A DNA stretch of 64,000 bases from an uncultured virus (IMG/VR IMGVR_UViG_3300022853_000024) (IMGVR_UViG_3300022853_000024), one strand, 5' to 3'; counted from the first letter of the stretch, positions 25,531 through 59,914 are shown. Notes: generated from the letters alone by a model not told the origin. Numbers and translations are program-made.

Positions 25531-26511
25531 TTACTGCTTGTTTTTACTGTGTTTAAGCATCTTTTCTACAGACTTGATAACTTTGTCTTCTGACTGATCA
25601 TCCATAGCCATAATCCCTTCGTTTGTTCTGTCACTGAACTCATCTGAAGTGATTCTTATAGGTGAATATACTCTATCTTCTAATCCAAGATCAATAATGT
25701 CGACATTATCTGATTCAGGAAATGATGTGTTTACGGGATATGTAGAACCTATTAATACTGTGGCAGTTCCGTTGAATGCATATGCAATGTGTTGTCCAAC
25801 TGAGTCGCAACCAACAAAGTGATTTGCTTGTTTTATGACAGCCATCCATATTCTTATGTGTACATTCATTGGTGTTGCCACGGGAGACGACATGTGTTTT
25901 TTAAATTCCAATGGGAATTCACTCATCATCATAACTCCATACTTTTTAGATAGTTTTCTTACAATACTCCAAACATTTTTTAGTTCTATACTTCTACCAG
26001 TAACATCTGCGATATCTGGCTGTTTGCCTTCTTTCATCTGTTTTTCAGTTAAATTTTCAGGATGAGCACTTCTTCCAAATGGCTGGACCACAACAATTTT
26101 GTCTTTGCCTGTTTTGTCTTTTACTTCAGCAATCATTTTTCTTGCCATAAGTAATTCTTCTTTGCTTAATCTTATAGTTGGTTTGGGTAAATCTCTAATG
26201 CCTTTGTTGTTGATGGCAATATCGTATGCTTGAGCAAGACTACATTTTTGATTATAATATTCCCAAATTCTGTATGGTTCAGGACTGATTAATTCTCGAT
26301 CTTTAAGCAACTCTTGAAATAGGTTTTTGTGCCAACTGTCGTATGCTTTAAAATACAGTTTAGGATGACCTTTAAAAGCATCAGTTCCACCTTCGCAAAC
26401 TAATATAGGATCTTTTTCAGGATTTTCTTCGAGATATTTTTCCACTGCTGGAATAGAACTAATCATTCTGCCAGCACCGCCGTTTAAAAATATTGCTGTT
26501 TTTTTACTCAT
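25531..26511 (-). CDS. GT-B glycosyltransferase, GT9/heptosyltransferase-like (copy 2)
   Basis: VVVQPFGRS and IKQANHFVGCDSVGQHIAYAF..ATVLIGST (GT9 DSG.mH motif). Paralog of 28340-29293. Confidence 0.75.
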   Translation of the reverse strand: MSKKTAIFLNGGAGRMISSIPAVEKYLEENPEKDPILVCEGGTDAFKGHPKLYFKAYDSWHKNLFQELLKDRELISPEPYRIWEYYNQKCSLAQAYDIAINNKGIRDLPKPTIRLSKEELLMARKMIAEVKDKTGKDKIVVVQPFGRSAHPENLTEKQMKEGKQPDIADVTGRSIELKNVWSIVRKLSKKYGVMMMSEFPLEFKKHMSSPVATPMNVHIRIWMAVIKQANHFVGCDSVGQHIAYAFNGTATVLIGSTYPVNTSFPESDNVDIIDLGLEDRVYSPIRITSDEFSDRTNEGIMAMDDQSEDKVIKSVEKMLKHSKNKQ

Positions 26512-28337
26512 TTGTTTGCTACCTTTATCAGTTTTCCGTATTCGGGTAAAAACAAGTATTCTATTTCACTGTTTACTAATGTTCTTACAGCATCGTCTAA
26601 TGTTTCTACTAATGGTTCACCGCCTAAATTAAATGACGTATTGAAAATTATAGGACATTCTGTTTGTTTATGAAACTCTTTTATTAAATCATAATACAAC
26701 GGATTTTGTTCTCTTTTTACAGATTGTATTCTACAAGTTCCGTCAACGTGAATAATACTAGGTATTTTTTCTCCAATTCCTGGTTGACAATTTACTGCAT
26801 ACATCATGTGAGGTGTTTCGTCCATGCCTCTTAAATCGAACCATTCATGCACATACTCGTGCAATATAGTTCCAGCAAAAGGTCTAAAGTATTCTCTGTG
26901 TTTAACTCTGTTAACGTGATCTTTACCATCTGGATCTCTTGGATCGTATAATATTGATCTATTACCCAATGCTCTAGGTCCGTTTTCACTGGCTCCTTGG
27001 AACACTGAAACAATATTCTTGTCAGTGATAATTTTTACAACTTCTTCATTGGTTGCATCTGTAAGTTCGACACCTTCTTGATTACATGCTACTTCAATCT
27101 GTTCTGTTGAATATGTTCTTTTTGGTCCAAGGTATAATGTTGGTTCATCTACTTTCTTTTCTTTAGACTGTGTAAGACTGTAATAAAACAACATTGCCGC
27201 ACCCATTGCCGTTCCAGCATCGTTTGATACTGGCTCAGCATAAAAGTTTATGCCGTCTTTCTTTAAGTGTTCTAAATAATAATAATTGGCAACACAGTTT
27301 AGTCCGTATCCTCCCGAGAATACAACGTTTTTACAACCACTCATTTGTACTGCTTTGTAGATTAAATCCAAACATTCTTTTTGTGATTCAGTTTGAACTG
27401 CGTATGCTAGATCTCTTCTATTTTGTAATGTTGTCCAATCTTCTTTTTTATCTGATGCAGGATTTTCATCAATGAAAGGATAAAGTCCACTGTTAACTAT
27501 TGAGGCATTAGGATATGTTGGTATAATAAAATTTCTATCTGATAAAGAATAGTATCCTTCTTTCTTAAAAAGTTTAGGAACCATGTCGTTTGGTTTACCA
27601 TATGGAAATAATCCCATTGTTTTGCCTGCTTCAATTGCCGAAAATCCACAATACTGTGTAACTGCTTCGTACACTTTTACAATCCCTGCTCTGTCTGTGA
27701 ATAATGCTTGGTGTGTTTTGCCCGGTTCACCTATGGAATCAGAAGCAAAGTCTGGATAAAATGCTCCTGGACTTGCTTCTCCCGTACCATAATGTTTGTA
27801 CAGTGCGAAAATATCATTAGGATAATCGCAACTGAAAATACTTTCAACTTCAAACACTGTCATTTCACCTGAGATACTATTTTTAATTGGAATAAAAGTT
27901 CCAGCACCGTCAACAATTACTGCCACTGCTTTATCAAAACCTGATCTATAAAAAGCACAGGCGGCATGTAGTTTGTGATGAATGTGTGCTAAATCAATTA
28001 CTTGAGGATGTTTTATTTCTTGTACGTGTCTATCAATTAATCCAAGTTTTCTTGCCATACCTGTATAAACATCGTCACCTGAATAATCAACTCTACCTGT
28101 TGATCTATCTTCTAAAGGTTGTGTGTGAGCAACAACAAGATAATCAATTTTATCTGTGTACTTCAATATTTCTACCATTGATGCATATGGTCCACCATCG
28201 TATTTTCTTCTAGATAAACGTTCTTCTTCTATTGAAAAAACCACTTCACCGTCTTTTAAAAGACAAACACCTGCATTATGCCCTCTGGCTATTGCGGCAA
28301 TATATCCTGTTTTATTGTATTTTTCTATATCATCCAT
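26508..28337 (-). CDS. O-carbamoyltransferase (NodU/CmcH/TobZ family)
   Basis: EEERLSRRK, HHKLHAACAFYRS, VDGAG, GKTMGL.PYG, SGGYGLNCVAN, DAGTAMGAA, E.GPRALGNRS, K.RE.FRPFA, HVDGTCRIQ and NTSFN..GEPLV. Confidence 0.95.
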   Translation of the reverse strand: MDDIEKYNKTGYIAAIARGHNAGVCLLKDGEVVFSIEEERLSRRKYDGGPYASMVEILKYTDKIDYLVVAHTQPLEDRSTGRVDYSGDDVYTGMARKLGLIDRHVQEIKHPQVIDLAHIHHKLHAACAFYRSGFDKAVAVIVDGAGTFIPIKNSISGEMTVFEVESIFSCDYPNDIFALYKHYGTGEASPGAFYPDFASDSIGEPGKTHQALFTDRAGIVKVYEAVTQYCGFSAIEAGKTMGLFPYGKPNDMVPKLFKKEGYYSLSDRNFIIPTYPNASIVNSGLYPFIDENPASDKKEDWTTLQNRRDLAYAVQTESQKECLDLIYKAVQMSGCKNVVFSGGYGLNCVANYYYLEHLKKDGINFYAEPVSNDAGTAMGAAMLFYYSLTQSKEKKVDEPTLYLGPKRTYSTEQIEVACNQEGVELTDATNEEVVKIITDKNIVSVFQGASENGPRALGNRSILYDPRDPDGKDHVNRVKHREYFRPFAGTILHEYVHEWFDLRGMDETPHMMYAVNCQPGIGEKIPSIIHVDGTCRIQSVKREQNPLYYDLIKEFHKQTECPIIFNTSFNLGGEPLVETLDDAVRTLVNSEIEYLFLPEYGKLIKVANK

Positions 28338-28339
28338 TA

Positions 28340-29293
28340 TTAGTCCTCTATTGATTCACCATTAACTGCAGAAACTACATAGTCTTCTATTTCAGGTGTC
28401 ATTGCCATTATTTGTTCTTGTTTTCTACTAATTCTTTCATCCATTGTTATTCTTATTGGATCATATTCGCGTGTCATTTGTCCTAGGTCTATGTGTTTAA
28501 TATTTTCTGATTTAGCATATGAAGTGTTTTCAGGATATGTTGCACCAAACACAACACTTGCTGGTGTATCTAAACTGTAAGCAAGATGTTGTCCTAAAGA
28601 ATCGCAACCTAAAAACTGATCAGCATATTTTATAATTGCCGCCCATTGTCTTAATTCCACTTTTTCTGGCATTGCTACTTCATCTGGAAATCCAGCATCT
28701 TTAAAGTCTATGCCGAATTCACTCATCAACATAACTGCAAAATCTTTCTCTTGTAATTTTTTAATAATGCTCTTTAAATTAAAAAACTCAATACTTCTGT
28801 TTGTTTTATCTACAAAAGAACCATCTATTTGTTGTATTGCTCTTCCGAAAGGTTGAATCACTACAACTTTTTCTTTTTTTAATTTCTCTTTAACTTCGTC
28901 TATTGCTTTTTTTCCAGCAAGTAATTCTTCTTTGCTTAATATCAGTGTTGATTTAGGTAAGTCTCTAATTCCTTTGTTGTTGATTAACACATCAAATGCT
29001 TGAGCAATATTACATTTTTGATTGAAATATTCATGCACTCTGTATGGTTCAGGACTTACAATATCCATGTTAACTAACTTTGTATGGAATAAATTTTTGT
29101 GATACATATCATATGTTTTTGAATCCAACGTTGGATGTCCTTTTAGAATATCACAAACACCTTCGATCACAATGACAAAATCTGGATCATTTCCTTCTTG
29201 TTGATATTTTTCTAAGGCAGGTATAGCAGATATAATTCTACCCATTCCACCATTGAGTAAAAATGCTTTAGGTCTTTTTTGTTCTGTGCTCAT
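28340..29293 (-). CDS. GT-B glycosyltransferase, GT9/heptosyltransferase-like (copy 1)
   Basis: VVIQPFGR and IIKYADQFLGCDSLGQHLAY...ASVVFGAT. ATG at 29293. Confidence 0.75.
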   Translation of the reverse strand: MSTEQKRPKAFLLNGGMGRIISAIPALEKYQQEGNDPDFVIVIEGVCDILKGHPTLDSKTYDMYHKNLFHTKLVNMDIVSPEPYRVHEYFNQKCNIAQAFDVLINNKGIRDLPKSTLILSKEELLAGKKAIDEVKEKLKKEKVVVIQPFGRAIQQIDGSFVDKTNRSIEFFNLKSIIKKLQEKDFAVMLMSEFGIDFKDAGFPDEVAMPEKVELRQWAAIIKYADQFLGCDSLGQHLAYSLDTPASVVFGATYPENTSYAKSENIKHIDLGQMTREYDPIRITMDERISRKQEQIMAMTPEIEDYVVSAVNGESIED

Positions 29294-29303
29294 TTGATAC
29301 AAA

Positions 29304-34517: not shown

Positions 34518-37500
34518 TTAACTATGTATTAAGTAGTTCATCGCAATCGGTACACCAGTAACTCCTTTTGTGAAGTTAGTGACGCTTTGGAAATTGATTC
34601 CTACGTTGTTACTTGTACTTATCGTATTACCAGTAATTACCACTAATCCCGCAGTAATCAAGTTAACATTGAGCGAACTAGCACCACCACCAATTTGTGA
34701 AGCGATATAAGTTCTTATTGCTCTCTGAGTCGGAACAATTGCGTCTGAATTAGCCGCCATTGTACCATCAGTTGAGAATTCATTGATAGAAGCACTTGTT
34801 CCACCTAATGCTAAATCACCCAACTGTAATTCTTGTAGTCCTGATATGTTGAATGCATCTGCGTTCAATGAAGCAATACCAGTTGCTTGTTCTACTGAGA
34901 ATAAATCTCCCACTCTAAAGTTACCATCTTGGTCTGTAGAAGTAAAGAATACTCTTCCTCCACCACCTTCAACAGTTTCGTTTGCTGGTATTGGATTTTG
35001 ACTTGGTAAACCTGGATAGTTTGTAGTTGTAAAGTTACCAGTACCTATGTCTAGGAAATCGTGACCAGTTAATCTAACTTGTGAGTATCTAATTCTCATT
35101 TCTATGGACTGTCCATGTTCTGGTGATTCATAAGATTTTATATCTGGTGAAACTTGTAATAGACCTGTGAAAGGAGTTTGTGTTCCAAGTTGTTGATTAA
35201 CAGCAACCAGTTTGAAATATTGTCCTGGTAAATGCCCAAACTCAATGTTTGATCCTGCTCTTGGAATTGATGTTAAATTTTCAACAGCAATATATTTTCC
35301 TGTTTGATAGTCATCTCTAAATCCACCAAATGTTTCTGCTGTTCCGCCACTTGCATATGCTGTGTAGCCAGTTGAATCAATTGGAGTTGTCAGTTCGTAG
35401 TCTGCATAAATTTCAAATGTGTCTGTTGTTAAAACTTTAACATAGTAGAACACACCAGTGTTTAACTCGATCATTCCAAGTATTGTATCAAACTTAACTT
35501 TATCGTTTGTGTTAAAGTTGTGTGCAGATGTTGTTGTGATCACTGCTGTTGTAGCCTGTGTAATTCCTGTTACAGTTGCTTGTACACCTTGCTCTGTGAT
35601 TCCAGCAGAAGCAGTTACATAATCAGAACCTCTTGCAACAAATGTTGGTTGACCTAATACACCATCGCCAATGTATGCTTGTACAGGCGCTTCTGTAGTA
35701 TTGTTTGGATCTGTGAATGTTACTGTTGGTGCACTTGTGTAAGAAGCACCACAATCTAATATTTTAACACTTGAAATAACTTCTCCTGTAACCACTGCTC
35801 TAGCAACTGCCTGTCTAGGAGTTGTTGAACCATCATTACTTGGAGCACCTATAACCACTCTTGGAGTGATTTGGTAGATTGTTGTTGAATCCAGTGTTGT
35901 CTCAACTGCTTTGCCACCTAATGTGTCCCAACCTGATGAGCTGTCTGAGAATTTTTTAATTGCGGCAATTTTGCTAGATGAATTGTAAGTGTCAATGTAA
36001 CCGTACTGTCCAGCACCTTTACCTTCTGTTACAAATAAAGCCATTCCAACATAAACTCCACTTGCCGCTGAATCTGCCGCCGCTAAAGTAATTTGTGTTG
36101 TTGTACCTGTTTGTCCTGAGTTTGTAGTAGTTACAAAACCTGCACCACCTAAATCTGATGGATCAGAAGCAGGAGTTTCTGTTAATCTAATTTTGTACAC
36201 TCCGCCTGTGTTGTAAGTTGCCACAACACCATTTAATCCAAAACCGTCGCCTGTGATAGTCACAGTAGCATCTGAATATTCTCTACCTGCGTTGCCATAT
36301 TCGAGTGCAAGTATTTGATTACCATCTGTAAACACACTATCAACCACTGCATCAGTAGATCTGTTGTTAACTTTACCTGTTACAGGAACTTCAGTTGGAT
36401 CAACACCTTCTGCCACACAACCAAAATCACCATATGATGAGTTACCGTTTGTAGCACGTATTTTTCCACCTGTTTCTGCAAGGTATCCAATGTGTCCATA
36501 GTATGAGAACACAGATACAAGTTCTGCTCTTCCTAAATTAGTGATCCATGCACCAATACCATCTGATATTACCTGCGTAAAGTCATTTGATACCATGGAA
36601 TCATTTCCACCTGCGTGTAAATCTCCATCAATTTTTTGTCCTACAGCACCTGTTCCAAATGTTGTAACGTTTTGAATGTAAGGTGATCTTCCACCTGCAC
36701 CATTCAGTGCACCAATCCACACACTTTCGTCTGCTGTGCCATATCCTGGATCAAGAGAAAGAAAAGCACCTGCTGATGGACGTTTAGTTCCATAACTGTT
36801 TGCCGCTCCCAATGAACCTGATAAACCTTGTACTGTACAGTTTCTTAAACCTGTTGCATTTCTCATGTAGAACATGTCTGAAGTTGTCGAACCGCCAACA
36901 GCATTCACATACCATTTAGCACCTTTCAGTGACATATAGTTTCCTGTATACTGTAAATCGTAAATAATTCCGTCTATGTAATCTTTAATATCGTCTTCAC
37001 AATCATTTTGACCGAATTCATATCCTGGGTTTGCTCTTTTCACAAATTCTGCACATTCTTTAGCCATAAAGTCTCTGTTGGCTAATACTCTTAAACGTGC
37101 ATCTGTGTAACCAACTTCTACGTTTGCTGTGTTTGAACCTGTAACTGCAACATCTGAACCAACTGCATTAATTTTGAAGTCAATGTATTTTTCAATATTG
37201 TCTGCAATTGCCGCCGCTGCTGTGCCTGCCGTACTTGAACCTGCTGGCACTGCCACGTTTTGTGTGATTGTGTTTCCTGATGTTACTGTTAACACTTGGA
37301 ATGTGATTGTTTCACCAATCGCTGTGTCACCAGTATCTGGATTGTTAATTGTTTCTGTTGACGCAATGGTGATTGTTTCACCTATTGCATAATTTTGTCC
37401 TGGAGCCAACACAGTTAATCCTATAACGTAAGCAAATTCGTTTGTTGTCAATGTAAATGTAGCACCTGATCCTGATCCAGAGGCTGTTGTGTTAACTGTT

Positions 37501-39887
37501 CCTGTACCTTCAATTAAACCAGCACCTTGAGAACCTAAACTTGCACCAGTTGGAACTGTTATTATACCACCTGATGGTGTTACTGAAACAGCATTGTTTT
37601 GAACAACATCTGAAATGATTGCTTCTAAACGTTGAATACCTTGTAAAGAATATTGAACATCACCACCAGCAACTAATGAGCCTGCTGGTCTGATGTTGGT
37701 TGATCTCAATTCGTCTCCAACCACAGCACAGTTTGACGGCACACTCATAGGAAGTGTTTCGTAGTATGTACCTGTTTTAACATTCAATGTGATTTGAGGT
37801 TGTAATTTAGCAGGAACACTGTTGATGTTGCCAGCCGTAATTGCATCTGATGGCACTGTCATTAATGAATTTATATCTGCAACCACTGTTGATTCTGCTA
37901 TCTTAGTTAAATCTGTTACTTGAAGTGTTGTACCTTGTGATGGTGTATATCCTGATGAATTCACAACCACTTGTTGAGCAATGTATGCCGCTCTCACAAT
38001 TGCCGCGGCAGTTTCTGCTGTTTGTCCTGCAACGTAACTAGCACCTGCGCCTGTAAAGTAACTTAATGCCGCTTCTCTTGATCTGACATTTCCGCCTTTA
38101 CGTAAATCGTTAATAGTGGCATCAATAATTATACCAATATCTCTTCTGCATTTCACAGCATCATAAGTGAAAGAACTTGTGAATGGTGAAATATTACCTG
38201 CAATTTGAACATTGATCCAAGCAATAATTTCGTCTTGTATGAATGCTTTGTTTCTAGTTAATAAGTTTACACCTTGTGGATTTCTTGGTCCTAAATCAAT
38301 TTGATGCAGTGCATATCTTACATTTTTAAACGGACTGTCTAGTGTGACACCAGCATTAGGAGCCGGTCTATCAACACCGCCTGGACCTACATAGTAAACT
38401 TGATCTACTTGTCCAACAAACCCCCATTGAGGTAATGTACCTGCACCGTTAACAACAAGTGCTTGTCCTGAAGCACCAATCGGTAATCTTGCTGGTCCTG
38501 AAGCACCATAAATTAAAATGTCACCTTCTGATTCTAATACATCATTTTCTGGACCACCTGCTAACAATTGCCAAACAGATGTATCAACACCAGCCCCTGG
38601 TGCGTAATCTGGTTGATTGATTGTTGCTGGTCCAACATTGTTTGAAGTGTGTGCTGTAATACAAATGTAAGAAGTGTCTGTGTTTATAGATCCTCTCACA
38701 ATATCGCCTTTGTCAAAAACAGCCGCATTGTTCCAAGCACCTTTCCAGTATAAACCTTCGTTTAGTTTATCCCATTGTAGTACACTTGGTGGTCTGTTTC
38801 CTGTTGTGTCAGCGATAGCAATGTAAGTTGTACCACCAACTCTAACAACATCACCTGTTTTGTAAGCAGTTGCGTTGTTGTAGTCACCTTTTAAACTGAA
38901 ACCTGTAACAAATAAATCCCAATCAGCAGTTTCTGTTGATGGAACTTTGTTTAAGTTGTTTCTTAATCCAACGTATTGGTAACCTCCGTAAGTAACAATG
39001 TCACCAGGTTGGTATTGTGTAGATGAACTCCACGAATCTTCAAATTCTAAACCTGGAATAAAAATGTCCCAGTTGGCTTCGTCAGCCGCCAATGATGCAC
39101 CTGCTGTGTGAGCCGCTGTTGCAATCCATAAGTTAGCACCATACTTAACAACATCATTAACTTTGTATCTTGTTGCTGTAACCCAAGCACCTAAATATTC
39201 AATACCTTTGTGTAGGTACTGCCATTTTGCTTGATCGTTTTCTAATCCTAATGCAACTGTCGCCGCCGAAGTGTGTCCAGTGATACAAACATAAAGTTGT
39301 CCACCATATCTTACTGTGTCATTTGGTTTGTATCTTGTTGCAATAGCCCAAGTGTTTAACCAGTTAAATCCTTTTGCAAACACTTCCCATTTTGCAATAT
39401 CTGTTTCTAAACCATCAGCCAATGTTGCCGCTGAAGTGTGTTCTGTTACACAAAGATATACAGTTGCACCGTATCTTACTAAATCGTTTACTTTGTATCT
39501 TGTTGCAATAGCCCAGTCTGTTTTGTAATCAAAACCTTCAATGAAAAGATCCCATTTTGCACTGTCGCCTTCCAGTCCAATGTTAACATCTGCGTTTGAG
39601 GCATGACCTGTGTTACAAATATAGATGTAACCACCGTATTTTACAACGTCATTTGGTTTGTATGTTGTGTTTACTCCCCAGTCGCCTTTCCATTCTTGCC
39701 CATCGGACATCAATGCCCAATTTGCCGCTGTTAAATCTACTTGGAATTCTGCGTCAGACGTGTGGTTTACGATACAGATGTAAGTTCTACCACCGTATCT
39801 TACAACATCATCTACTGAATAAAGAGCACTTGTGTACCAAGCACCTTTCCAAACAAAACGTATTCTACCTAATTTAAACTCAGCCAT
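34518..39887 (-). CDS. Large fibre/spike protein, 1789 aa (8 CBM5/12-like repeats, beta-helix)
   Basis: W.G.W...Y..DVV.YGG repeats, a YYV...G.D beta-helix start and YSQVRLTGHDFLDIGTG near the C-terminus. Confidence 0.8.
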   Translation of the reverse strand: MAEFKLGRIRFVWKGAWYTSALYSVDDVVRYGGRTYICIVNHTSDAEFQVDLTAANWALMSDGQEWKGDWGVNTTYKPNDVVKYGGYIYICNTGHASNADVNIGLEGDSAKWDLFIEGFDYKTDWAIATRYKVNDLVRYGATVYLCVTEHTSAATLADGLETDIAKWEVFAKGFNWLNTWAIATRYKPNDTVRYGGQLYVCITGHTSAATVALGLENDQAKWQYLHKGIEYLGAWVTATRYKVNDVVKYGANLWIATAAHTAGASLAADEANWDIFIPGLEFEDSWSSSTQYQPGDIVTYGGYQYVGLRNNLNKVPSTETADWDLFVTGFSLKGDYNNATAYKTGDVVRVGGTTYIAIADTTGNRPPSVLQWDKLNEGLYWKGAWNNAAVFDKGDIVRGSINTDTSYICITAHTSNNVGPATINQPDYAPGAGVDTSVWQLLAGGPENDVLESEGDILIYGASGPARLPIGASGQALVVNGAGTLPQWGFVGQVDQVYYVGPGGVDRPAPNAGVTLDSPFKNVRYALHQIDLGPRNPQGVNLLTRNKAFIQDEIIAWINVQIAGNISPFTSSFTYDAVKCRRDIGIIIDATINDLRKGGNVRSREAALSYFTGAGASYVAGQTAETAAAIVRAAYIAQQVVVNSSGYTPSQGTTLQVTDLTKIAESTVVADINSLMTVPSDAITAGNINSVPAKLQPQITLNVKTGTYYETLPMSVPSNCAVVGDELRSTNIRPAGSLVAGGDVQYSLQGIQRLEAIISDVVQNNAVSVTPSGGIITVPTGASLGSQGAGLIEGTGTVNTTASGSGSGATFTLTTNEFAYVIGLTVLAPGQNYAIGETITIASTETINNPDTGDTAIGETITFQVLTVTSGNTITQNVAVPAGSSTAGTAAAAIADNIEKYIDFKINAVGSDVAVTGSNTANVEVGYTDARLRVLANRDFMAKECAEFVKRANPGYEFGQNDCEDDIKDYIDGIIYDLQYTGNYMSLKGAKWYVNAVGGSTTSDMFYMRNATGLRNCTVQGLSGSLGAANSYGTKRPSAGAFLSLDPGYGTADESVWIGALNGAGGRSPYIQNVTTFGTGAVGQKIDGDLHAGGNDSMVSNDFTQVISDGIGAWITNLGRAELVSVFSYYGHIGYLAETGGKIRATNGNSSYGDFGCVAEGVDPTEVPVTGKVNNRSTDAVVDSVFTDGNQILALEYGNAGREYSDATVTITGDGFGLNGVVATYNTGGVYKIRLTETPASDPSDLGGAGFVTTTNSGQTGTTTQITLAAADSAASGVYVGMALFVTEGKGAGQYGYIDTYNSSSKIAAIKKFSDSSSGWDTLGGKAVETTLDSTTIYQITPRVVIGAPSNDGSTTPRQAVARAVVTGEVISSVKILDCGASYTSAPTVTFTDPNNTTEAPVQAYIGDGVLGQPTFVARGSDYVTASAGITEQGVQATVTGITQATTAVITTTSAHNFNTNDKVKFDTILGMIELNTGVFYYVKVLTTDTFEIYADYELTTPIDSTGYTAYASGGTAETFGGFRDDYQTGKYIAVENLTSIPRAGSNIEFGHLPGQYFKLVAVNQQLGTQTPFTGLLQVSPDIKSYESPEHGQSIEMRIRYSQVRLTGHDFLDIGTGNFTTTNYPGLPSQNPIPANETVEGGGGRVFFTSTDQDGNFRVGDLFSVEQATGIASLNADAFNISGLQELQLGDLALGGTSASINEFSTDGTMAANSDAIVPTQRAIRTYIASQIGGGASSLNVNLITAGLVVITGNTISTSNNVGINFQSVTNFTKGVTGVPIAMNYLIHS

Positions 39888-39922
39888 GGGTTAATATATC
39901 CTCTTATTACAGTTATTTATCA

Positions 39923-42900
39923 TTATTCGCCGTATCCGTTAGAACTATCAATAGCACTAGTCGGATCTCCTTCATTTAATTCTGTACTTGCTGTACCGCC
40001 AGTGAAAAAGTTCAATGCTAACAATGAGCCTGAAAATCCACCATTTAAATTAGCAATTCTATCTATAACAATTTGTCCTGTTTCTGGAAATGCTTCATTA
40101 AATATTTCTTTATTTCTTACTTTAATTTGACCTGCTCTAAAACCTGAAACATTCAAGTTAGCACCACCTCCAGAAACTCTTGATCCAATATATGTAAGAA
40201 TTGCTTTCTGTGTTGGTACTACATTGTCGGAGTTTGCCGCCATTGTAGGATCTGTTGAAAATTCTCTAATAACAACTTCTGTTCCACCCAATACAACACC
40301 ACCTAGTGCTAATTCTGATAGTCCTTGTAAATTGAATAAATCTGCGTTAAGTGTTACAATACCTGTTGCCTGTTCAACAATAAACAATTCTCCAACACGG
40401 AAGTTACCATTCTGATCAGTTGATGTGTAGAATACTCTACCACCGCCATTATTGGCAGTTTCTCTGTTTGATTGGTATTCATAACCTTCTGTGAATCCAG
40501 CATTGGTGTAAAGTTCTGGATAGTTTGTTGTTGTTACTCCACCAGTTCCAATATCTAAGAAATCATGACCAGTTAATCTAACTTGTGAATACTGTTGTCT
40601 AATTGTTATTGTTGTTTCATGCCCTGGAGATTCGTTAGATTTCAAACTTGGTGAAATTCTAAATTGTGCTGTAAGATTTGGAACTGAACCTGTAATGTTT
40701 GTAATCTGTGTTACTCTATAAATTTGATCTTCAATGCCGTTAATGTACAACAAGTCGCCTGGTCCAGGTTCTCTTGATAATTCTTTTATTTGTACAACTT
40801 TTCCTAATTGGAATTCGTCAGCAAATCCATCACCTGTAACCGTTGCACTTACATTGATAAATCCTGTACCTCTGTTGGTGAATGTTGGTTGACTCAATAC
40901 TCCGCTGGCTATTCTTGCTTCGACAGCCACATCTGTTATGTTCACATTGTCTGTGATTGTAACTGTTGGTGCTGTTGCGTATCCTGATCCTGTGTCTAAC
41001 AGTTGTACTTTAGAAACCTTACCTGCATTTGTTATAACTCTTGCTAAAGGTGGAGCACCTTTTTTAAGAACAGTTATATCTGACATTGTGGTATCTTTTA
41101 ATGGAACAAAATAACCGCCAGCATTTCTACCGCCCACGATGCCTGAGTAAGTTCCTGATAATGTTGCCAATTCTTTCCAACTTACTGCGTCATATGAGTA
41201 AGCCACTTCGCCATTCACAGTGATCGCTAAAAAAGTTCCTTGAGAACTTGTTACTGCTGTGTATGGTCCTGTGTGTGGAGGTGTTTCTGATTCTGTCCAA
41301 ACTGTGATAGCACTTGTTGAACTTTGTGCCGCATTTGCATTTGATACAAAGAATTTATTCACTGACGTTGAATCGTCAAATGGTGAATCTTGTACTGATG
41401 CTATAAATTTATCTCCAGTGAACGTCAAGTGCTGTACTATATATCTGTCACCACCTATGTTAGCCGCCAACTCCCAAGTTGTACCACCGTCTACTGATTC
41501 CCAAGTTTGTCCATAGTCGTTGCTTATAACAATTAAACCGTTACCTGCCGCAATTTTTGAAAACACTGCTGTTGATCCATCGTACGGTTCAACTTGTTGA
41601 GATGACCATGTGTTACCTTCATCGCCTGATATGTAAACAACACCTGTTGATGAAACCACAACCCATTGTGCAGATACGTCTTCCCATGCACAACCTTTAA
41701 ATATGTCTGCTCCAATATTGCTTGAAATGTCACTCCAGTTAGCACCGTCTTGTGATCTTGCTAGACCACCTGTGCTAGAAGTTGCCATAAAGTTATTCTT
41801 TCCGCCTACCAAACTGTTCCAGTCCTGTGTTGGTACACCGTTTGCAACAGTCCAGTTAGTAGAATCAACTGATCTTAAACCTCTACCGTTGCCTAATAAA
41901 ATAGTTACGTTTGTGCTTGTAACTCTTCTTGAAGCACCTAATAAATAATCTCCATTTAATGGAATTGATGCTGATGAAGTACTGTATGGTGGTTCACTGA
42001 ATTGTATTCTTGGCTCAATAAAATATTTTGTTGATGGATCTAATGCTGTTTCAATTGCAAATCCACCTAAAAAATGTTGCCATCCTGGTGTGTTATCAAA
42101 TTCTTTTTTAACTGTGCAAACTTTTGTTAATTCATTAAAAGAATCAATGATTCCGTATTGTCCTCTGCCAGTACCTTCCCAAATATAAATTCTTTGTCCA
42201 ACTGTTTGAGCTGAAGTTCCTTGGAATTGTGCATTCAATTGTATGCTGGTAGCAGTACCTGTTATGGCTGGTCCTGATTTACTTGTGTATCCGGCACCAC
42301 CTGCTGGAGTTGAATCTCCAGGGCCTAATATTCTAATTTTATTTACAGCACCGTCTCTGGTGTTTTCATAATTGATTACACCCGATGCACCTTCTCCTGA
42401 ACCTGCTATTGTGATAGTAGCAGATGTATAATCTTGTCCTGCATGATCGTAAGCAAAAGCAAATATCTCATTTTCATCATTGTACACTGCATCTACTTGA
42501 GCTTCTTGTGTTCTGTTATTGAATTTTGCTGTGATAGGTGTTTCAGTGGGTGTTACACCTTCTGCAACTGAACCCCAATCTCCATAAGAGTTGTTTCCGT
42601 TTGTTGCTCTAACTTTACCACCAGAAGTTGCTAGATATCCTATGTGACAATAATATGTGAACACAGATACAAGTTCTGATTTACCTTCACCATTAACCCA
42701 GAAACCAATACCTTGATCGATAACCTGTGTAAAGTCATTGGCAACAATTGATCTGTTACCACCATTGTGAAGATCGCCATCTACTTTTAAACCTACACAT
42801 CCTGTTCCAAATGTTGATACATTTTGTACATAACAAGATCGTGTTGTTATCCAAGCCGCCGCATCTGACGCCCCCGAACCAGGATTTAACGAAACAAATG

Positions 42901-45076
42901 CTCCGCCTGTTGGTCTTTTTGTGCCGTATTCATTGATTGGTCCTAATGTTCCAGATAATCCACTTAATGACATATTTCTAATACCTGAACCATTGTTAAC
43001 ATAAAACATATTTGATGTTTCATAACCAGCCGCCGGTTTAACTTCTGTGCTTCTCAGTTCATCTCCAACTAGTGCAGTGTCTCTTGGCACAGTGATAGGT
43101 AAAATTTCTTGATACAAACCTGTTTTAATAAAGACTGTTGCAGGTGATCTTGCGGCTAAATCGCTATTGATAAAATCACAAGCAAATTTAATCGTTTTAA
43201 AAGGAGCCGCCAACTGCGTTCCTTTTGTTTGATCGTCTGTACCATCTGGTGATACATAATAAACTTTTGGTGTTACATCAAAATCTTCCCAGAAAGGAAT
43301 ATTGTTTGATCCCACCTTTAATACTTGTCCTGATGCTCCTATACCAATTCTTAATCTTGTTGAATCATCATTTTGTGTTTTGATATCTCCAGGATATTCT
43401 AATACATTAGGAGTGTGTCCTGTTGCTACTAATATCCAGTAAGGTCCAACATTTTCTGATTCAAAATCTAATGGTGGTTTAGCATCTGATGAATTTGCTT
43501 CATGTTTTAAAATACATTTGTAAAGTGTGCCTGCAACTGTGACAACGTCTCCAGGGAAATATGTTTGTTCGCCTGACACACCACCTAGATCAGTTTCTTT
43601 CCAAGGACCTTTGAATGCATTACCTGTTACCAATAATTGCCATGGGAATGGAGAATCAGTTCCTTCGTCGTACACAACTCTTGTGCTTGGATCTACACTT
43701 GCATTATCTGTAACAGCAATGTATAAATCACCACCTGCTCTTACAACATCTCCAGTTTTGTATGGGAAAGGTTCAACAGCATTGTTAACTAGATAAGTTG
43801 ATTTCCATTCACCTTTGAATGTGTATCCAACAACTTGTAATTCCCAAGTTGCAGATGCATCTGTGACAGCAGGTGTAACACCAACGTTACTTTTTAGTGC
43901 AACATATGTGTAACCTCCGTAGAGAACAACATCACCTTGTTGGTAGTATTGAGAAATAGTCCATATTGATTCAAATTCTAAACCAGGTACCCATAAATTG
44001 AAATTACTTTCAATCATAGTGGCACTTGTTGCCCAGTGTCCTGTGGTTACTTGCCACATACCAGGAGACCATCTTACTAGTTCTCCTGCTGAATATCTTT
44101 CTCCAACAGTGTAATCTCCTCTGTATCTAATTCCTGTGAACACAGTTGCCCATTGTCCACTGTTTGCTTCTAAACCATCGTTGGCATCGTTGGCTACACC
44201 GTTTACTCCCATCGATGTTATTGCACCACCACCGTCCACTGTGTTGATAACCATGGACACATCATTGGCTGGTGTTGCTCCACCCAGTGCTGATCCTAAA
44301 ATTGTGAAAGTTTCTGAGGCAAGATAAGTTGATCCACCGTTTGTGATTTGAATATTATATGTTGCGCCAACTTTGAAAATAAAGAATTGTAATCCCGTTC
44401 CTGATGCACCACCGTATGTAGCAGTAGGATTTATAAATTTGTTTGAAGCGGCAGATCTGTGACCTGTTGTACATCTAAAAACTGTACCACCGTAGTACAC
44501 AACATCATCTGGATAGTACAAAGTGTTTGCTGTCCAGTCGCTTCTAAAGTTATCTGATCTAGAATATTGATCCCAGTATGACGCATTGAATTGTAATCCA
44601 TCATCAGCACTTCCTGAAGTGTGTGCTGTGTTACATTTCCAAATTGATCCACCGTAAATTACTGTTTGGTCAACATTGTAAAGTGTGGCAGGTGTCCAAA
44701 TACTTTGCCAATCTTCTCCACGAGCAAAGTAAACCCATTTTAATTCATCTCCTAGTACACCATTTGAAACAGATGCATTTGAAATGTGACCTTCAATACA
44801 TTTGTAAATTAATCCACCAACTTTAACCAGTTCACCAATTTTGTAAAATGTTGAAGGTGCCCACGCACCAGTCCAACTTTGGCCATCCATCATCTGAGAC
44901 CATTTTGGAGTCGAGTTGTTTAAGTCGTTGTAAAAGTTTGTGTCTGATGTGTGTACGTTAACACATACAAATACTTTTGCACCGTATCTTAGTACATCAT
45001 CTTTTACATAAAGAGTATTGGCTGACCAATCACCTCTCCATCTAAATCTAATTCTATCTATTCGAAAATCTGCCAT
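39923..45076 (-). CDS. Large fibre/spike protein, 1717 aa, paralog of 34518-39887 with an Asp-box propeller insert
   Basis: Same architecture plus S.DG.tW Asp-box repeats. Confidence 0.8.
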   Translation of the reverse strand: MADFRIDRIRFRWRGDWSANTLYVKDDVLRYGAKVFVCVNVHTSDTNFYNDLNNSTPKWSQMMDGQSWTGAWAPSTFYKIGELVKVGGLIYKCIEGHISNASVSNGVLGDELKWVYFARGEDWQSIWTPATLYNVDQTVIYGGSIWKCNTAHTSGSADDGLQFNASYWDQYSRSDNFRSDWTANTLYYPDDVVYYGGTVFRCTTGHRSAASNKFINPTATYGGASGTGLQFFIFKVGATYNIQITNGGSTYLASETFTILGSALGGATPANDVSMVINTVDGGGAITSMGVNGVANDANDGLEANSGQWATVFTGIRYRGDYTVGERYSAGELVRWSPGMWQVTTGHWATSATMIESNFNLWVPGLEFESIWTISQYYQQGDVVLYGGYTYVALKSNVGVTPAVTDASATWELQVVGYTFKGEWKSTYLVNNAVEPFPYKTGDVVRAGGDLYIAVTDNASVDPSTRVVYDEGTDSPFPWQLLVTGNAFKGPWKETDLGGVSGEQTYFPGDVVTVAGTLYKCILKHEANSSDAKPPLDFESENVGPYWILVATGHTPNVLEYPGDIKTQNDDSTRLRIGIGASGQVLKVGSNNIPFWEDFDVTPKVYYVSPDGTDDQTKGTQLAAPFKTIKFACDFINSDLAARSPATVFIKTGLYQEILPITVPRDTALVGDELRSTEVKPAAGYETSNMFYVNNGSGIRNMSLSGLSGTLGPINEYGTKRPTGGAFVSLNPGSGASDAAAWITTRSCYVQNVSTFGTGCVGLKVDGDLHNGGNRSIVANDFTQVIDQGIGFWVNGEGKSELVSVFTYYCHIGYLATSGGKVRATNGNNSYGDWGSVAEGVTPTETPITAKFNNRTQEAQVDAVYNDENEIFAFAYDHAGQDYTSATITIAGSGEGASGVINYENTRDGAVNKIRILGPGDSTPAGGAGYTSKSGPAITGTATSIQLNAQFQGTSAQTVGQRIYIWEGTGRGQYGIIDSFNELTKVCTVKKEFDNTPGWQHFLGGFAIETALDPSTKYFIEPRIQFSEPPYSTSSASIPLNGDYLLGASRRVTSTNVTILLGNGRGLRSVDSTNWTVANGVPTQDWNSLVGGKNNFMATSSTGGLARSQDGANWSDISSNIGADIFKGCAWEDVSAQWVVVSSTGVVYISGDEGNTWSSQQVEPYDGSTAVFSKIAAGNGLIVISNDYGQTWESVDGGTTWELAANIGGDRYIVQHLTFTGDKFIASVQDSPFDDSTSVNKFFVSNANAAQSSTSAITVWTESETPPHTGPYTAVTSSQGTFLAITVNGEVAYSYDAVSWKELATLSGTYSGIVGGRNAGGYFVPLKDTTMSDITVLKKGAPPLARVITNAGKVSKVQLLDTGSGYATAPTVTITDNVNITDVAVEARIASGVLSQPTFTNRGTGFINVSATVTGDGFADEFQLGKVVQIKELSREPGPGDLLYINGIEDQIYRVTQITNITGSVPNLTAQFRISPSLKSNESPGHETTITIRQQYSQVRLTGHDFLDIGTGGVTTTNYPELYTNAGFTEGYEYQSNRETANNGGGRVFYTSTDQNGNFRVGELFIVEQATGIVTLNADLFNLQGLSELALGGVVLGGTEVVIREFSTDPTMAANSDNVVPTQKAILTYIGSRVSGGGANLNVSGFRAGQIKVRNKEIFNEAFPETGQIVIDRIANLNGGFSGSLLALNFFTGGTASTELNEGDPTSAIDSSNGYGE

Positions 45077-56606: not shown

Positions 56607-57239
56607 TTAAGTTGCTTGAGCGTCAACAACAATGTTGCCTGCGCCTACTGCCGCTTTAGTTGCCACACCAGCACTACCGTATGCAGTAAAGCCTATACTA
56701 TCAATTCCTGTTAATTCGAATGTGTTAGTTGCTTTGTTTGCTACTGTGTATGCAGTTTCAAGGTTAAGCTCAACCATGCCAACTACGCCACGGATAGATA
56801 CTTTATCTCCGTTGCTGAAGCCGTGTCCAGTTGCTGTGATAACACATGGATCTGCCTGTGTTGCACCTGAAATAACTTTTTCAACTGCATCAGATAAACC
56901 GTCAGCATCTCTAGTCCATACGTGTCTAGTTGCGCCTTCAAGTTGCATTTTTCTGTTGTACAGTTTAGTAACTTGTTTTGTAACACCGTCACTGTCAGTT
57001 ACGTTAATGCAAAATTCGCCTGCGCCTAAAGCACCAGCACCTACACCACCGATTGACTTGTTTACAAGTGTACAAGTTTCTGTTTTTGATCCATCAGTTA
57101 CAATAAATTTGTTTGTTGATCTTTGTGACACAATATGTGATTCAGTAGTAATTTCTCCACCTGCCGCGAATTTAACCGCAGTTACTTGAAGTTTACCTGC
57201 TCCATCACCAATGTGTTTTTTGTTAATTGGTCTTCCCAT
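56607..57239 (-). CDS. Putative head decoration/structural protein with an FCCH-like beta-barrel
   Basis: MGRPINK N-terminus and ISGATQADPCVITATGHG..GD.V...V.GM.ELN domain, also present in the 1789-aa protein. Confidence 0.6.
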   Translation of the reverse strand: MGRPINKKHIGDGAGKLQVTAVKFAAGGEITTESHIVSQRSTNKFIVTDGSKTETCTLVNKSIGGVGAGALGAGEFCINVTDSDGVTKQVTKLYNRKMQLEGATRHVWTRDADGLSDAVEKVISGATQADPCVITATGHGFSNGDKVSIRGVVGMVELNLETAYTVANKATNTFELTGIDSIGFTAYGSAGVATKAAVGAGNIVVDAQAT

Positions 57240-57334
57240 TTTGTTTCTCCTGTTGACGTTCTAGGTCTACGGGGTTGATTCCCCATAAGTCCAGCCGAAA
57301 CTGGCCCAAAACAATTGTTTATAGAAGTATTTAT
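57240..57334 (-). other. Late promoter plus structured 5' leader
   Basis: ATAAATA at 57328-57334, then hairpins CCAGT-TTCG-GCTGG and TATGGGG-AATCAA-CCCCGTA before the AGGAG SD. Confidence 0.55.
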
Positions 57335-57603
57335 CGTTTGCTGAGTGATGCTATCAGTTCTACTTTTGAGAATTTTTTTGCTAGATCGATGGCTTCTATG
57401 AGCACAGAACTGGCTTCTTCTAGGTATCTATCTTTCTTGGTTCTACGGTAATCTATCAAAATAGTGGTGTATTCATCATACATTTTGTTCAGAGTGTTTT
57501 CTAATTTTTTGATATCGTTGATGAATATGCCATGACTGGTCTTCCATACTTGCAGTCTGTCCATGTATTCTTTGAATTCTAATAATATTTTTTCGTGTTC
57601 CAT
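57331..57603 (-). CDS. Hypothetical helical protein
   Basis: ATG at 57603 directly after the hemB stop. 90 aa. Confidence 0.65.
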   Translation of the reverse strand: MEHEKILLEFKEYMDRLQVWKTSHGIFINDIKKLENTLNKMYDEYTTILIDYRRTKKDRYLEEASSVLIEAIDLAKKFSKVELIASLSKR

Positions 57604-57604
57604 A

Positions 57605-58408
57605 TCAATCCAATTGACCAATCAAGTCTCTGGCTCCGTATGTTACTAAAAATTTTGCACCTGCTGATTTATACACTTTGGATATTTCAATCTGGTGTTG
57701 CAGTGTGGGCAATCCTTTGTATTCATCTCCCACTTGATACACTCCAACCGGAATGTAAGATCCTGCATTTATCATGCTTAAATTATGTAAACTGTGTTGT
57801 CCTGGTTTCAGCAACAAGTAATCTGCTTTTTGTTTTTTGTATTGATTGGCTGTGGCAATCATGCCCCAATCATTGTCAACAGGCAGTTGGTATGTTCTGC
57901 TGGTGGTGGGTGTGCTGTCTGCTAGATCTCTAAAAGAACTGTAAAACACACTGCGGTATTTTACATATGCCATCACTTCACTGTGAGTTTCTGATTTTAA
58001 ATTTTGAACTGTGCGTTCTCCCATGTCTGAAGGAGCCAATATGTCTGCACCTGCAGATTTTAATTTCTTACCCAAATCAATCAACAGTGCTTCACTGGTG
58101 TCTGGTTTGTCCATCACTCTACAATGCCCATCTGGTAAAGAGGCACACAAGCACACATCCACAATCAGTTGTATGTTGGGAAATTTTGTTTTTATTTGAT
58201 TTACAATTCTTTGATTAAAACTCCAATCAGGAGTCCAAGATTTATGTTCTGGTGTTATGAACAGCAAGAAACTGTCTACACCTTTGTCTATGTCTTTTTG
58301 AATTCTGTCTTCTATTAAGGATTCGGACCAACTGCTGTTATCAGCACCTAATCCAGCCGTTTCTGTTCTGCCTTTTTCGTTGACAAACAATGGCTGGATT
58401 AAGTCCAT
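57605..58408 (-). CDS. hemB: Porphobilinogen synthase (ALA dehydratase)-like protein, divergent and N-terminally short
   Basis: DLIQPLFV, DVCLCASLPDGHC (Zn triad), GADILAPSDM, YVKY.S.FY..FRD, TYQ, LKPG and YQV..EY. Confidence 0.85.
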   Translation of the reverse strand: MDLIQPLFVNEKGRTETAGLGADNSSWSESLIEDRIQKDIDKGVDSFLLFITPEHKSWTPDWSFNQRIVNQIKTKFPNIQLIVDVCLCASLPDGHCRVMDKPDTSEALLIDLGKKLKSAGADILAPSDMGERTVQNLKSETHSEVMAYVKYRSVFYSSFRDLADSTPTTSRTYQLPVDNDWGMIATANQYKKQKADYLLLKPGQHSLHNLSMINAGSYIPVGVYQVGDEYKGLPTLQHQIEISKVYKSAGAKFLVTYGARDLIGQLD

Positions 58409-58412
58409 ATGA

Positions 58413-58616
58413 TTACTTCTCTTCTTTTTTAGGAAGTGCCGCACACTGTTCTTCGTCTGCTGGCAGACCAGTGTTTTTATCATAGATCCAAACATACGAA
58501 TAAGTGATGTTGTCATCAGTCATTGAACATTTTTTTCCAAATGATACTCTTGGTTCTTTAATAGAACAAGCAGATACTATGAAGAAAGATAATATTATTA
58601 TTGCAATACTTTTCAT
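58413..58616 (-). CDS. Small lipoprotein
   Basis: MKSIAIIILSFFIVSA-C signal peptide with lipobox, plus two more Cys. Confidence 0.75.
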   Translation of the reverse strand: MKSIAIIILSFFIVSACSIKEPRVSFGKKCSMTDDNITYSYVWIYDKNTGLPADEEQCAALPKKEEK

Positions 58617-58644
58617 TTTAGTCCTTGTTAGTGTTTCCTCGTTA

Positions 58645-58673
58645 ATTATACTACATTTTGGTATAAAAGTCAA
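58645..58673 (-). promoter_or_regulatory. Near-consensus sigma70 promoter
   Basis: TTGACT-17 nt-TATAAT just downstream of the capsid terminator. Confidence 0.85.
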
Positions 58674-58693: not shown

Positions 58694-58718
58694 AAAAAAG
58701 GGGGCCGAAGCCCCCTTT
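58694..58718 (-). terminator. Rho-independent terminator after the major capsid gene
   Basis: GGGGGC-TTCG-GCCCCC followed by T6 (T4-type UUCG loop). Confidence 0.92.
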
Positions 58719-58741: not shown

Positions 58742-59914
58742 TTATGCAAACGAAATGTTTGACATAGTAACTTTACCAACATAGTCCCCAGCATTTCCTA
58801 GTGAAGATGCTGTGTTGTTTAACTCTACATAACCATATCTAGTCATGAAAGAAACAACTGGTTCAAAAGTTGATGGGTCAAGCACAACACCGCTAGACAT
58901 TAACGGAATGTATGGGCAATAGAACGCCGCCGCATCTGCTTCAGATGAGCCTTTGTATCCTACCAATACAGACGTATCGTCTGCCGCATATGTGTCAACA
59001 TATACTTTCATTGCACTGTTTAAAGTTCCAACCATCTTTTGGTTAGTTGGTGCTTCAAAAGAACCTTCAGTTGTTCTTGCGAACGCTGAAGTTGTTGCAG
59101 ATTGAAGTACAGTTAAAGCCTGTGGTGATACCACAGCCCAGTTTCCTGCGCCTCTTCTTGTTCTTTGTGCAATTTTATTTGCTGTTCTGTTGATTAACAC
59201 AGCCAATGCCGCATGTTCATCGCCTACAAAAGTTGCAGTTCCTGATACAGCCGCTTGGTTAAATGTTTCTTCATCAGCCGCTAAAGCTCTTAATGAGTTG
59301 ATGACTTCTTGGTCGATTTCAGCAGTAATTTCTTGTGCTAATGCCGCCATGATTTCAGCCTCTACATCAATACCTTGTTGAGCTTGTGCGTCTTGAGCAG
59401 ATTCAAATGTCCATCTTGCTTGTAACTTTCTGCTTTTTGCTTCAACAGTTTGTTTCAAGATTTGGATTGACATTGCTCTACCACCACTACCTTCTTTAGT
59501 GGCTGTTGCGTCTGCATTACCATTTGGATCTGCTACATCGTTACCTGAATAACCTTGTGCAATTGCAAATGGTGATAATGCTTCAGCCCCTGCCGCTAGT
59601 CCGCCGCCTGATGTTGCCGCTTCTGCATATCTTACTCTTAGTGTGTGGATTTGTCCAACTGGGCCAGTCATTGGTTGTACTCCAACCAATTCGTTAGCAA
59701 TTACAGTAGGCATAACCCTTCTGATCACGGGTAGGATCACTCTGTTTAGAGTTGCAACGTTACCGGCAGATGTAGCACCTGCTGTTGCCGACTCTGAAAG
59801 ATACTGTCTAGTATTTTCCAAAGTTGTAGCCATAACTGCTTTTTTATTTCCAGTTAGGCCTTCTAGTAACGCACTCTTTGTATCCTGCCAGCGAGTTTCT
59901 GTTAGTTCTGACAT
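58742..59914 (-). CDS. gp23: Major capsid protein (gp23-like)
   Basis: RRVMPTVIANELVGVQPMTGPVGQI, KSRKLQARWT.E.AQD, EITAEIDQE, YCPYIPL and TRYG. Confidence 0.97.
   Translation of the reverse strand: MSELTETRWQDTKSALLEGLTGNKKAVMATTLENTRQYLSESATAGATSAGNVATLNRVILPVIRRVMPTVIANELVGVQPMTGPVGQIHTLRVRYAEAATSGGGLAAGAEALSPFAIAQGYSGNDVADPNGNADATATKEGSGGRAMSIQILKQTVEAKSRKLQARWTFESAQDAQAQQGIDVEAEIMAALAQEITAEIDQEVINSLRALAADEETFNQAAVSGTATFVGDEHAALAVLINRTANKIAQRTRRGAGNWAVVSPQALTVLQSATTSAFARTTEGSFEAPTNQKMVGTLNSAMKVYVDTYAADDTSVLVGYKGSSEADAAAFYCPYIPLMSSGVVLDPSTFEPVVSFMTRYGYVELNNTASSLGNAGDYVGKVTMSNISFA

Follow-up and report, generated by a model that had tools for sequence, protein, structure and literature searches.

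Can a porphobilinogen synthase (PBGS, the HemB or ALAD protein) do without its N-terminal arm, and if so, what is such an enzyme doing in a phage? The question is raised by a hemB-like gene in a 64,000-nucleotide stretch of DNA from an uncultured virus (IMG/VR IMGVR_UViG_3300022853_000024), referred to below as the window. A first interpretation, made from the sequence alone and called here the sequence-only reading, took the gene to be a phage-encoded HemB without the arm. It offered three explanations: a deregulated auxiliary metabolic gene that boosts tetrapyrrole synthesis, a dominant-negative subunit, or a repurposed aldolase-like enzyme. The open reading frame (ORF), its match to Pfam family PF00490, its start two residues before the LIQP strand and the virion genes on both sides bear out the identification. 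The first explanation fits best, given that the catalytic residues are invariant, that the family is under purifying selection and that relatives carry pathway neighbours. We consider it likely that the gene encodes a working, unregulated, minimal barrel-only Zn-PBGS, which as an auxiliary metabolic gene would raise tetrapyrrole flux during infection.

The translation of positions 57605–58408 contains the motifs VDVCLCASLPDGHC, MAYVKYRS, LLLKPG, APSDMGERT and VYQVGDEY. It matches the Pfam ALAD family with an E value of 2e-40 and 139.3 bits (cut-off 24.6) over profile positions 26–314 of 317, while no PHROG family matches it at E 1e-5. The best sequence matches among solved structures are ALAD/PBGS, the top one being the Pseudomonas aeruginosa enzyme (1e-17, query residues 2–265 on chain residues 37–332). 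The structure was predicted using AlphaFold with 19 family members, giving a predicted local distance difference test score (pLDDT) of 86.6 and a predicted template-modelling score of 0.89; only the lid, at about residues 150–180, is less confident, with pLDDT around 64. The Foldseek matches listed from the PDB are all ALAD/PBGS, with TMq up to 0.90 (human ALAD, 1e51), so that model and structure search agree on an (alpha/beta)8 barrel of the ALAD type.

Canonical PBGS (E. coli 1b4e/1i8j, P. aeruginosa 1b4k and human 1e51) have this TIM-barrel fold in common with the phage protein (TMq 0.86–0.90), which also has both Schiff-base lysines, the Zn-type three-cysteine site, the lid Arg/Arg(Lys)/Gln and the C-terminal Tyr. 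The phage protein is however only 24–28% identical to them and about 60 residues shorter. In the alignment its N-terminus is short by about 33–35 residues, and a further 27 or so are missing across five loops, part of the active-site lid (at least two residues) among them. It also differs in having Thr for the Arg of SDMMDGR, in lacking the conserved allosteric-Mg Glu, and in scoring below the NCBIfam equivalog cut-offs.

The first residue of the phage HemB lies only 2 positions ahead of the LIQP strand, and the arm of about 35 residues is absent. In the window there is an ATG in frame 36 codons upstream (58516), which would give an ORF of 303 residues. We compared 79 loci, comprising 78 taken from the 125 HemB relatives found on IMG/VR viral contigs, and L080 (G001), the nearest record. 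The upstream frame is open in the window and in 16 of the 79 loci, which are its closest kin (L002–L015, L041 and L080). In the other 63 it closes 0–27 codons upstream of the conserved ATG (47 in L058), leaving no room for the arm of approximately 25–35 residues that an octameric morpheein has; none of them offers an ATG, GTG or TTG adding more than 13 residues, except L058, which has a TTG 30 codons up. The start M-x-[LF]-I-Q-P is common to all 19 aligned family members. Because the upstream frame is closed in most loci and the relatives share this start, we conclude that the short start is a family trait and that the arm is truly absent; an upstream start that restores it, which the sequence-only reading had allowed for, was not found. 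The reading frame is intact in 78 of the 79 loci, and the remaining one, L052, is cut by the end of its contig. We note that the upstream 36 codons were also considered as a relic of the arm. They add 7.8 bits to the Pfam score, and the idea was rejected because BLASTP extends the alignment only weakly, by 12 residues with 2–3 identities, and because the frame is closed in most relatives.

Residues were numbered by alignment to the P. aeruginosa structure, and their roles are taken to be those given in the PBGS literature. D84, C86, C88, H95, C96, S127, D128, Y148, K150, R160, R171, Q174, K201 and Y257 are invariant in all 42 distinct viral sequences. K150 and K201 align to the P. aeruginosa Schiff-base lysines K205 and K260, and C86, C88 and C96 to the engineered Cys sites of P. 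aeruginosa mutants, giving a DxCxC...C site of the Zn type. The Zn ligands and lysine motifs first seen in the window are thus common to the whole viral set. The lid residues R160, R171 and Q174, also present in 42/42, align to P. aeruginosa R215, K229 and Q233, which we presume to be the ligands of the A-side carboxylate. By contrast, the position aligned to the allosteric-Mg ligand, which we take to be P. aeruginosa Glu245 (E245), is Ala185 in the window, and only one of the 42 sequences has Glu there, so that this Mg site is not retained.

Two motif changes had been put forward as features of the protein type. SDMGERT proves to be one: SDMG[DE]xT is found family-wide, with Thr133 in 42/42 where canonical SDMMDGR has Arg, and is partly common to the SAR11 lineage (SDMMKNT). 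The Gly of QVGDEY is not, being private to the window's strain. The ratio of nonsynonymous to synonymous substitution (dN/dS) has a median of 0.22 and a range of 0.02–0.65 (Nei-Gojobori; the 298 of 861 pairs with dS 0.05–1.5), and between the window's gene and its nearest relatives it is 0.15–0.20 (0.15 against L005). The viral HemB family is under purifying selection.

The phylogeny against bacterial HemB that the sequence-only reading had proposed was calculated with IQ-TREE on 64 rows. All 23 viral rows fall into a single clade (support 100/99), the four Pelagibacteraceae-like rows into another (100/99), and the two are joined with support of 100/98. A quick tree of 117 rows has the same topology. 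Among the matches listed from species-representative genomes, the best is L085, an alphaproteobacterial metagenome-assembled genome, at 39% identity; NCBI records for identical and near-identical proteins (MEK9885463.1, MAD14083.1) bear the name Pelagibacteraceae delta-aminolevulinic acid dehydratase. The HemB of Pelagibacteraceae (SAR11), 302–307 residues long, is thus the nearest cellular relative of the phage protein. The two have in common LIQP[IL]F, the Zn motif, ITYGAR and the Thr of SDMMKNT. Unlike the phage protein, SAR11 HemB keeps 14–18 residues before LIQP, about half an arm, and has loops of canonical length. It also differs in lying in a cellular heme operon, which in L085 reads HemC(-like, 531 residues)-HemB (307 residues)-HemE-HemH-HemF, with an ALA (5-aminolevulinate) synthase gene nearby. 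The basal viral members P0053 and L061 keep about 12 residues before LIQP. The arm thus shortens in steps, from approximately 35 residues in canonical enzymes through 14–18 in SAR11 and about 12 in basal phages to 2 in derived phages, and the phage HemB was apparently taken from SAR11-type bacteria. As a separate observation, the 531-residue HemC homologue of L085 (1355–2950) matches PF01379 only over residues 43–267; its C-terminal half could be a fused HemD.

The window is part of the structural region of a large PA5oct-like jumbo myovirus, in which metabolic genes are interspersed. On the two sides of HemB lie genes for a portal fragment, prohead protease, scaffold, capsid, sheath, tube, baseplate and very long fibres, and the guanine-cytosine (GC) content of HemB, 0.39–0.41, is that of the neighbouring genes; cellular contamination is therefore excluded. 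Sinorhizobium phage Phosso, Vibrio phage 2.275.O and Pseudomonas phage PA5oct have capsid proteins with 65–69% identity to that of the window. From the nearest record, G001 (66.8 kb, with an estimated completeness of 21%), a genome size of about 300 kb can be calculated. The hallmark genes on both flanks, the synteny, the dN/dS of 0.22 and the cellular sister group together form the context of a viral auxiliary metabolic gene.

A protein search for relatives gave 48 clusters, mostly of 263–284 residues plus fragments, at 35–93% identity and on contigs of up to 280,940 bp (P0020). An exhaustive profile search gave about eight short-form representatives, then a gap from 237 to 203 bits, and then the canonical enzymes of 325–335 residues. 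In 63 of the 79 loci the gene order is orf314-protease-scaffold-capsid-(small lipoprotein)-HemB-orf96-...-orf337; within this syntenic clade the capsid is 77–100% identical and HemB identity goes down to 40%. The remaining 16 loci represent two other lineages. In one of these (L053, L054, L056 and L057) HemB is 43% identical to that of the window, and the DnaB helicase of L057 is closest to those of PA5oct-like jumbo phages (52%). The other (L062–L072 and L076) is T4-like, with HemB 37–38% identical and a GC content of 31–33%; for the DNA polymerase of L067, the best match in 50,697 phage records is the enzyme of Pelagibacter phage Mosig (67.8% identity), and we class this lineage as pelagimyophage-like. 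In INPHARED no isolate phage with the short HemB turned up: the search gave only matches of 28–30% identity on 9 records, mostly unannotated and short, which look like cellular DNA, and Mosig was not among them. Two sequence oddities were seen in this material. P0032 (NCBI, 332 residues) is 79% identical over residues 1–163 and then continues as unrelated sequence, probably because of a frameshift or a chimeric assembly. In L013 and L015 identity to the window is 99–100% for the protease, scaffold, lipoprotein, orf337 and orf108, 92% for the capsid and only 82% for HemB, a mosaic pattern that suggests recombination within the capsid-HemB segment.

The search for other heme genes that had been suggested was made on genome fragments and was productive in one lineage only. 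In L057 the short HemB gene overlaps a HemF gene upstream (PF01218, 1e-78; NF003727, 295.7 bits against a cut-off of 297) and a heme oxygenase gene downstream (PF01126, 6.5e-17). On the L054 contig are HemF and an ALA synthase scoring 558 bits with TIGR01821 (cut-off 338). Of the four enzymes looked for in 36 viral records, ALA synthase occurs in 1, heme oxygenase in 1, HemF in 2 and HemC in 0. All the matches are on the L054 and L057 contigs, that is, in the lineage with 43% HemB identity. Immediately upstream of the HemF-HemB-heme oxygenase genes of L057 is a gene for orotidine 5'-phosphate decarboxylase (8564–9226; PF00215, 7e-33).

The PBGS of Rhodobacter capsulatus is reportedly a hexamer; in this hexamer and in that of the human F12L variant the arm is kept and re-oriented, whereas in the phage protein it is deleted outright. 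The human F12L hexamer (1pv8) is among the quaternary variants of PBGS in which, according to PMC7729013, arm-dependent assembly is altered, with kinetic consequences. The same paper places the allosteric Mg at the arm-barrel interface and describes non-octameric forms with high Km, in agreement with what the sequence-only reading had said of the arm's role in octamer assembly and allostery. Prediction of a homodimer of the phage protein gave a score of 0.54 against 0.00 for the best control. Of 30 proteins solved as homodimers 20 score this high, as does 1 of 23 with a single-chain structure. Agreement between runs is at least 97% of contacts, with partner pLDDT of at least 90. The predicted interface is symmetric and is made up of residues 153–155, 177–180, 204–211 and 228–250, which include the flanks of the lid and the shortened loop 231–235. 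Since PBGS oligomers have been solved, the prediction may be recall of the known barrel-barrel contact.

Several observations weigh against a working, tetrapyrrole-boosting PBGS taken from SAR11. The protein falls far below the NCBIfam PBGS equivalogs (NF006762, 125.3 bits against 297; NF009923, 98.6 against 507), as do the other viral lineages (178 and 159 bits). Lid closure and low Km are said in PMC7729013 to depend on the octamer-specific contact of arm to barrel, and an enzyme without the arm could therefore be a poor catalyst. In the syntenic clade of the window, ALA synthase, heme oxygenase, HemF and HemC were found in 0 of 29 records, which are 5–37% complete. The window's protein has Gly at position 227, where the other 41 of the 42 distinct viral sequences have Ser, and its gene lies within the structural module. 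As for the donor, the SAR11 rows of the tree were flagged for unusual amino-acid composition, and the cellular HemB sample consists of the matches listed for a single peptide pattern, which limits the inference since other donors may be unsampled.

Some of these points would also be expected of an enzyme that keeps the PBGS fold and has acquired a new function, using the Schiff-base and Zn chemistry on a different pair of substrates or for a different pyrrole or aminoketone product, or serving to remove ALA instead of supplying heme synthesis. The scores far under the equivalog cut-offs, the shortened lid loop, the change of SDMMDGR to SDMG[DE]xT with Thr in 42/42, and the lack of pathway partners in the sequenced parts of the window's clade all suit this explanation, as does the fact that pelagimyophage-like contigs have 2-oxoglutarate (2OG)-Fe(II) oxygenases for neighbours instead of heme genes. 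All residues that contact the two ALA molecules in solved PBGS are nevertheless invariant, bar Ser227 in the window strain; relatives are operonic with HemF and heme oxygenase or lie near ALA synthase; and the nearest cellular relative, which already has the Thr (SDMMKNT), sits in a heme operon. We regard a new function as unlikely, and nothing points to the aldolase-like chemistry that had been proposed. The 2OG-Fe(II) oxygenases (PF13759, PF05118) are a recurrent feature in their own right: they are found in the window at 8436–9074 (minus), in L068 at 9240–10004 and 10876–11472, and in L071, and two of them flank the short HemB in pelagimyophage-like contigs.

It is also conceivable that the family as a whole is active and that the enzyme of the window strain is impaired or inactive through the change of Ser227 to Gly. 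We take this Ser to be a ligand of the P-site carboxylate, corresponding to Ser286 of P. aeruginosa, with Y257 corresponding to Y324; the Gly occurs in only 1 of 42 distinct viral sequences, and P0002, which is 93% identical to the window's HemB, has Ser. Against this, three other IMG/VR contigs from different samples encode exactly this protein (100% identity), as does G001, from which it follows that the variant is maintained in nature. There is no relaxation in the remainder of the gene (dN/dS 0.15–0.20 to nearest relatives), and the backbone amide together with Tyr257 could still hold the carboxylate. Impairment of this one strain is in our view improbable.

The remaining explanation of the three, a dominant-negative or regulatory subunit, would pair with barrels of the host HemB, block the octamer, and shut down or re-tune host heme synthesis. 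The arm is missing and yet the barrel-to-barrel interface is confidently predicted, and pairing with the host protein is conceivable because the donor lineage is the presumed host group. A poison subunit would have no need of intact catalytic residues, though, and these are invariant in 42/42; the ALA synthase, HemF and heme oxygenase carried by relatives speak for making tetrapyrroles rather than blocking them; and identity to the SAR11 enzyme is only 39%. This makes the idea, for which we found no support, very improbable. Decay to a pseudogene, a mis-called start or cellular contamination can be dismissed as scarcely credible, in spite of the in-frame ATG 36 codons upstream in the window and of phage-database matches that are only 28–30% identical and mostly short unannotated records, since the frame is intact in 78/79 loci with dN/dS of 0.22, the upstream frame is closed in 63/79, virion genes lie on both sides and the GC content is that of the neighbours.

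We return to the working barrel-only PBGS. The following account goes beyond what the sequences show in what it says of catalysis, of assembly, of when the gene is expressed and of what the phage gains. Two molecules of ALA would bind as Schiff bases, to Lys201 in the P site and to Lys150 in the A site, as the conserved residues suggest. The A-side carboxylate would be held by lid residues Arg160, Arg171 and Gln174, and the P-side carboxylate by Tyr257 and, in relatives, by Ser227. Zn bound to Cys86, Cys88 and Cys96 would activate the A-side substrate, and porphobilinogen would be released. Without arm or arm-side ligand for the allosteric Mg, and with some 27 fewer residues in its loops, the enzyme would have no arm-dependent equilibrium of octamer and hexamer and would probably be an always-on barrel-to-barrel dimer. 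HemB would be transcribed together with the small lipoprotein gene from their own sigma-70-type promoter, downstream of the capsid terminator, and the purpose may be to keep up or raise the supply of tetrapyrrole (heme) in the infected cell. The family would go back to a single acquisition of a Pelagibacteraceae-like HemB whose arm was already shortened, followed by spread to at least three phage lineages.

The features of the locus are collected in Table 1.

Table 1. Features at the HemB locus of the window.
Feature	Position	Strand	Details
Short (armless) PBGS/HemB homologue	57605..58408	minus	267 aa + stop
In-frame upstream open stretch	58409..58516	minus	36 codons; judged to lie outside the HemB gene; overlaps the 3' end of the small gene
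orf96, conserved helical ORF directly downstream of HemB	57331..57621	minus	96 aa; 36–99% identity in syntenic loci
Small predicted lipoprotein gene, first of the cassette	58413..58616	minus	begins MKSIAIIILSFFIVSAC; signal peptide; lipobox-like VSAC
Sigma-70-like promoter	58645..58673	minus	TTGACT-17-TATAAT; 11 of 12 consensus positions
Intrinsic-terminator-like hairpin	58697..58718	minus	AAAGGGGGCTTCGGCCCCCTTT then T-run; directly after the capsid stop
gp23-like major capsid protein	58742..59914	minus	PF07068, 1.3e-99; anchors the cassette in the head module

The predicted lipoprotein gene, the HemB gene and orf96 look like a small cassette with its own host-type promoter rather than the tail of the capsid transcript. 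A promoter-like site with at least 10 of 12 consensus positions is present in all 38 distinct capsid-HemB intervals. Shuffled intervals reached the observed promoter scores in 207 of 7600 cases, a figure that is not a probability because the intervals are related to each other. Across lineages a GC hairpin and T-run follow the capsid stop, and the stems differ in sequence and yet are self-complementary. Four RNA libraries, all from one marine study, contain contigs that cover parts of HemB, and some of these contigs bridge the 3' end of the capsid gene, the lipoprotein gene and the 5' half of HemB. Carry-over of DNA is possible, and because DNA can occur in such libraries their presence there is weak evidence of expression; the parts of HemB that they do not cover are uninformative either way.

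Most syntenic loci have a homologue of the lipoprotein, 48–99% identical, in the interval from capsid gene to HemB. The VSAC lipobox was judged against the usual consensus, and the predicted lipoprotein may belong to the superinfection-exclusion type. Its ORF is listed as 58413–58673, and the TTG start at 58673 would fall inside the promoter. For orf96 there is no match to a Pfam or PHROG family. We considered it as a dedicated partner of HemB and rejected this, because it follows HemB in the syntenic clade only and is absent beside HemB in the other two phage lineages. Downstream of orf96, some of the relatives but not all have a protein that in the window (56607–57239, minus) is 210 residues long; it contains a ubiquitin-E1 FCCH-like domain (PF16190, 3e-11) and weakly matches a PHROG 'major tail protein'.

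Elsewhere in the window there is a cluster of genes for sugar or envelope modification, at 12423–15980 (plus) and 25531–29302 (minus). It encodes a NUDIX protein, a PfkB kinase-cytidylyltransferase fusion resembling the heptose kinase/adenylyltransferase HldE, an NAD epimerase, a cupin (PHROG 'cysteine dioxygenase'), a carbamoyltransferase, a GT9 heptosyltransferase-like protein and two phrog_8954 paralogues. Two adjacent fibre-like proteins of 1789 and 1717 residues (34518–45076, minus) have phrog_9851 in common, and further along is a virion structural protein of 2344 residues (16104–23138, minus).

Full-text searches of the literature found no paper that describes a phage-encoded PBGS, in keeping with the remark in the sequence-only reading that HemB is not often cited among phage genes; in automated JGI annotation such proteins are already called porphobilinogen synthase. 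Before the viral ALA synthase gene valaS, the tetrapyrrole genes known from phages were those for heme oxygenases and bilin reductases (PMC11480375, Nat Commun 2024). The valaS paper mentions neither hemB nor porphobilinogen synthase in its main text and 11 supplementary files. Like the cyanophage heme oxygenase and bilin reductases and like valaS (PMC11480375), the phage HemB is a host-derived tetrapyrrole gene on aquatic phage contigs, and it differs from them in the step of the pathway; its relatives overlap with that set, through the ALA synthase on the L054 contig and the heme oxygenase of L057. For one deep-water pelagimyophage, PMC7029224 mentions 'coprophyrinogen oxidase, porphobilinogen deaminase', and its 10 supplementary files contain none of the terms searched for.

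A bolder proposal, which we make tentatively and with some doubt, is that these proteins represent a natural dimeric PBGS consisting of the barrel only, having no arm, no allosteric Mg site and no octamer, and with a shortened lid that closes unaided. Its carriers would be jumbo phages of roughly 300–350 kb and pelagimyophages of SAR11-type hosts, which would field ALA synthase, HemB, HemF and heme oxygenase to take over the heme metabolism of the host. If a barrel-only PBGS is real, catalysis would not require the morpheein machinery, whose role would be regulatory. As the textbook morpheein, PBGS is held to need for its activity the octamer contacts made by the arm, by which the active-site lid is closed, and a conserved armless family provides a ready-made test of this, as well as a very small PBGS for structural work. 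The viral repertoire of heme oxygenase, bilin reductases and ALA synthase would gain the second step of tetrapyrrole synthesis, together with HemF in relatives. The gene is also a marker of a widespread marine jumbo-phage clade in which a fixed metabolic cassette adjoins the capsid gene, and its SAR11-like origin offers a testable lead to the host of phages for which there is no cultured host.

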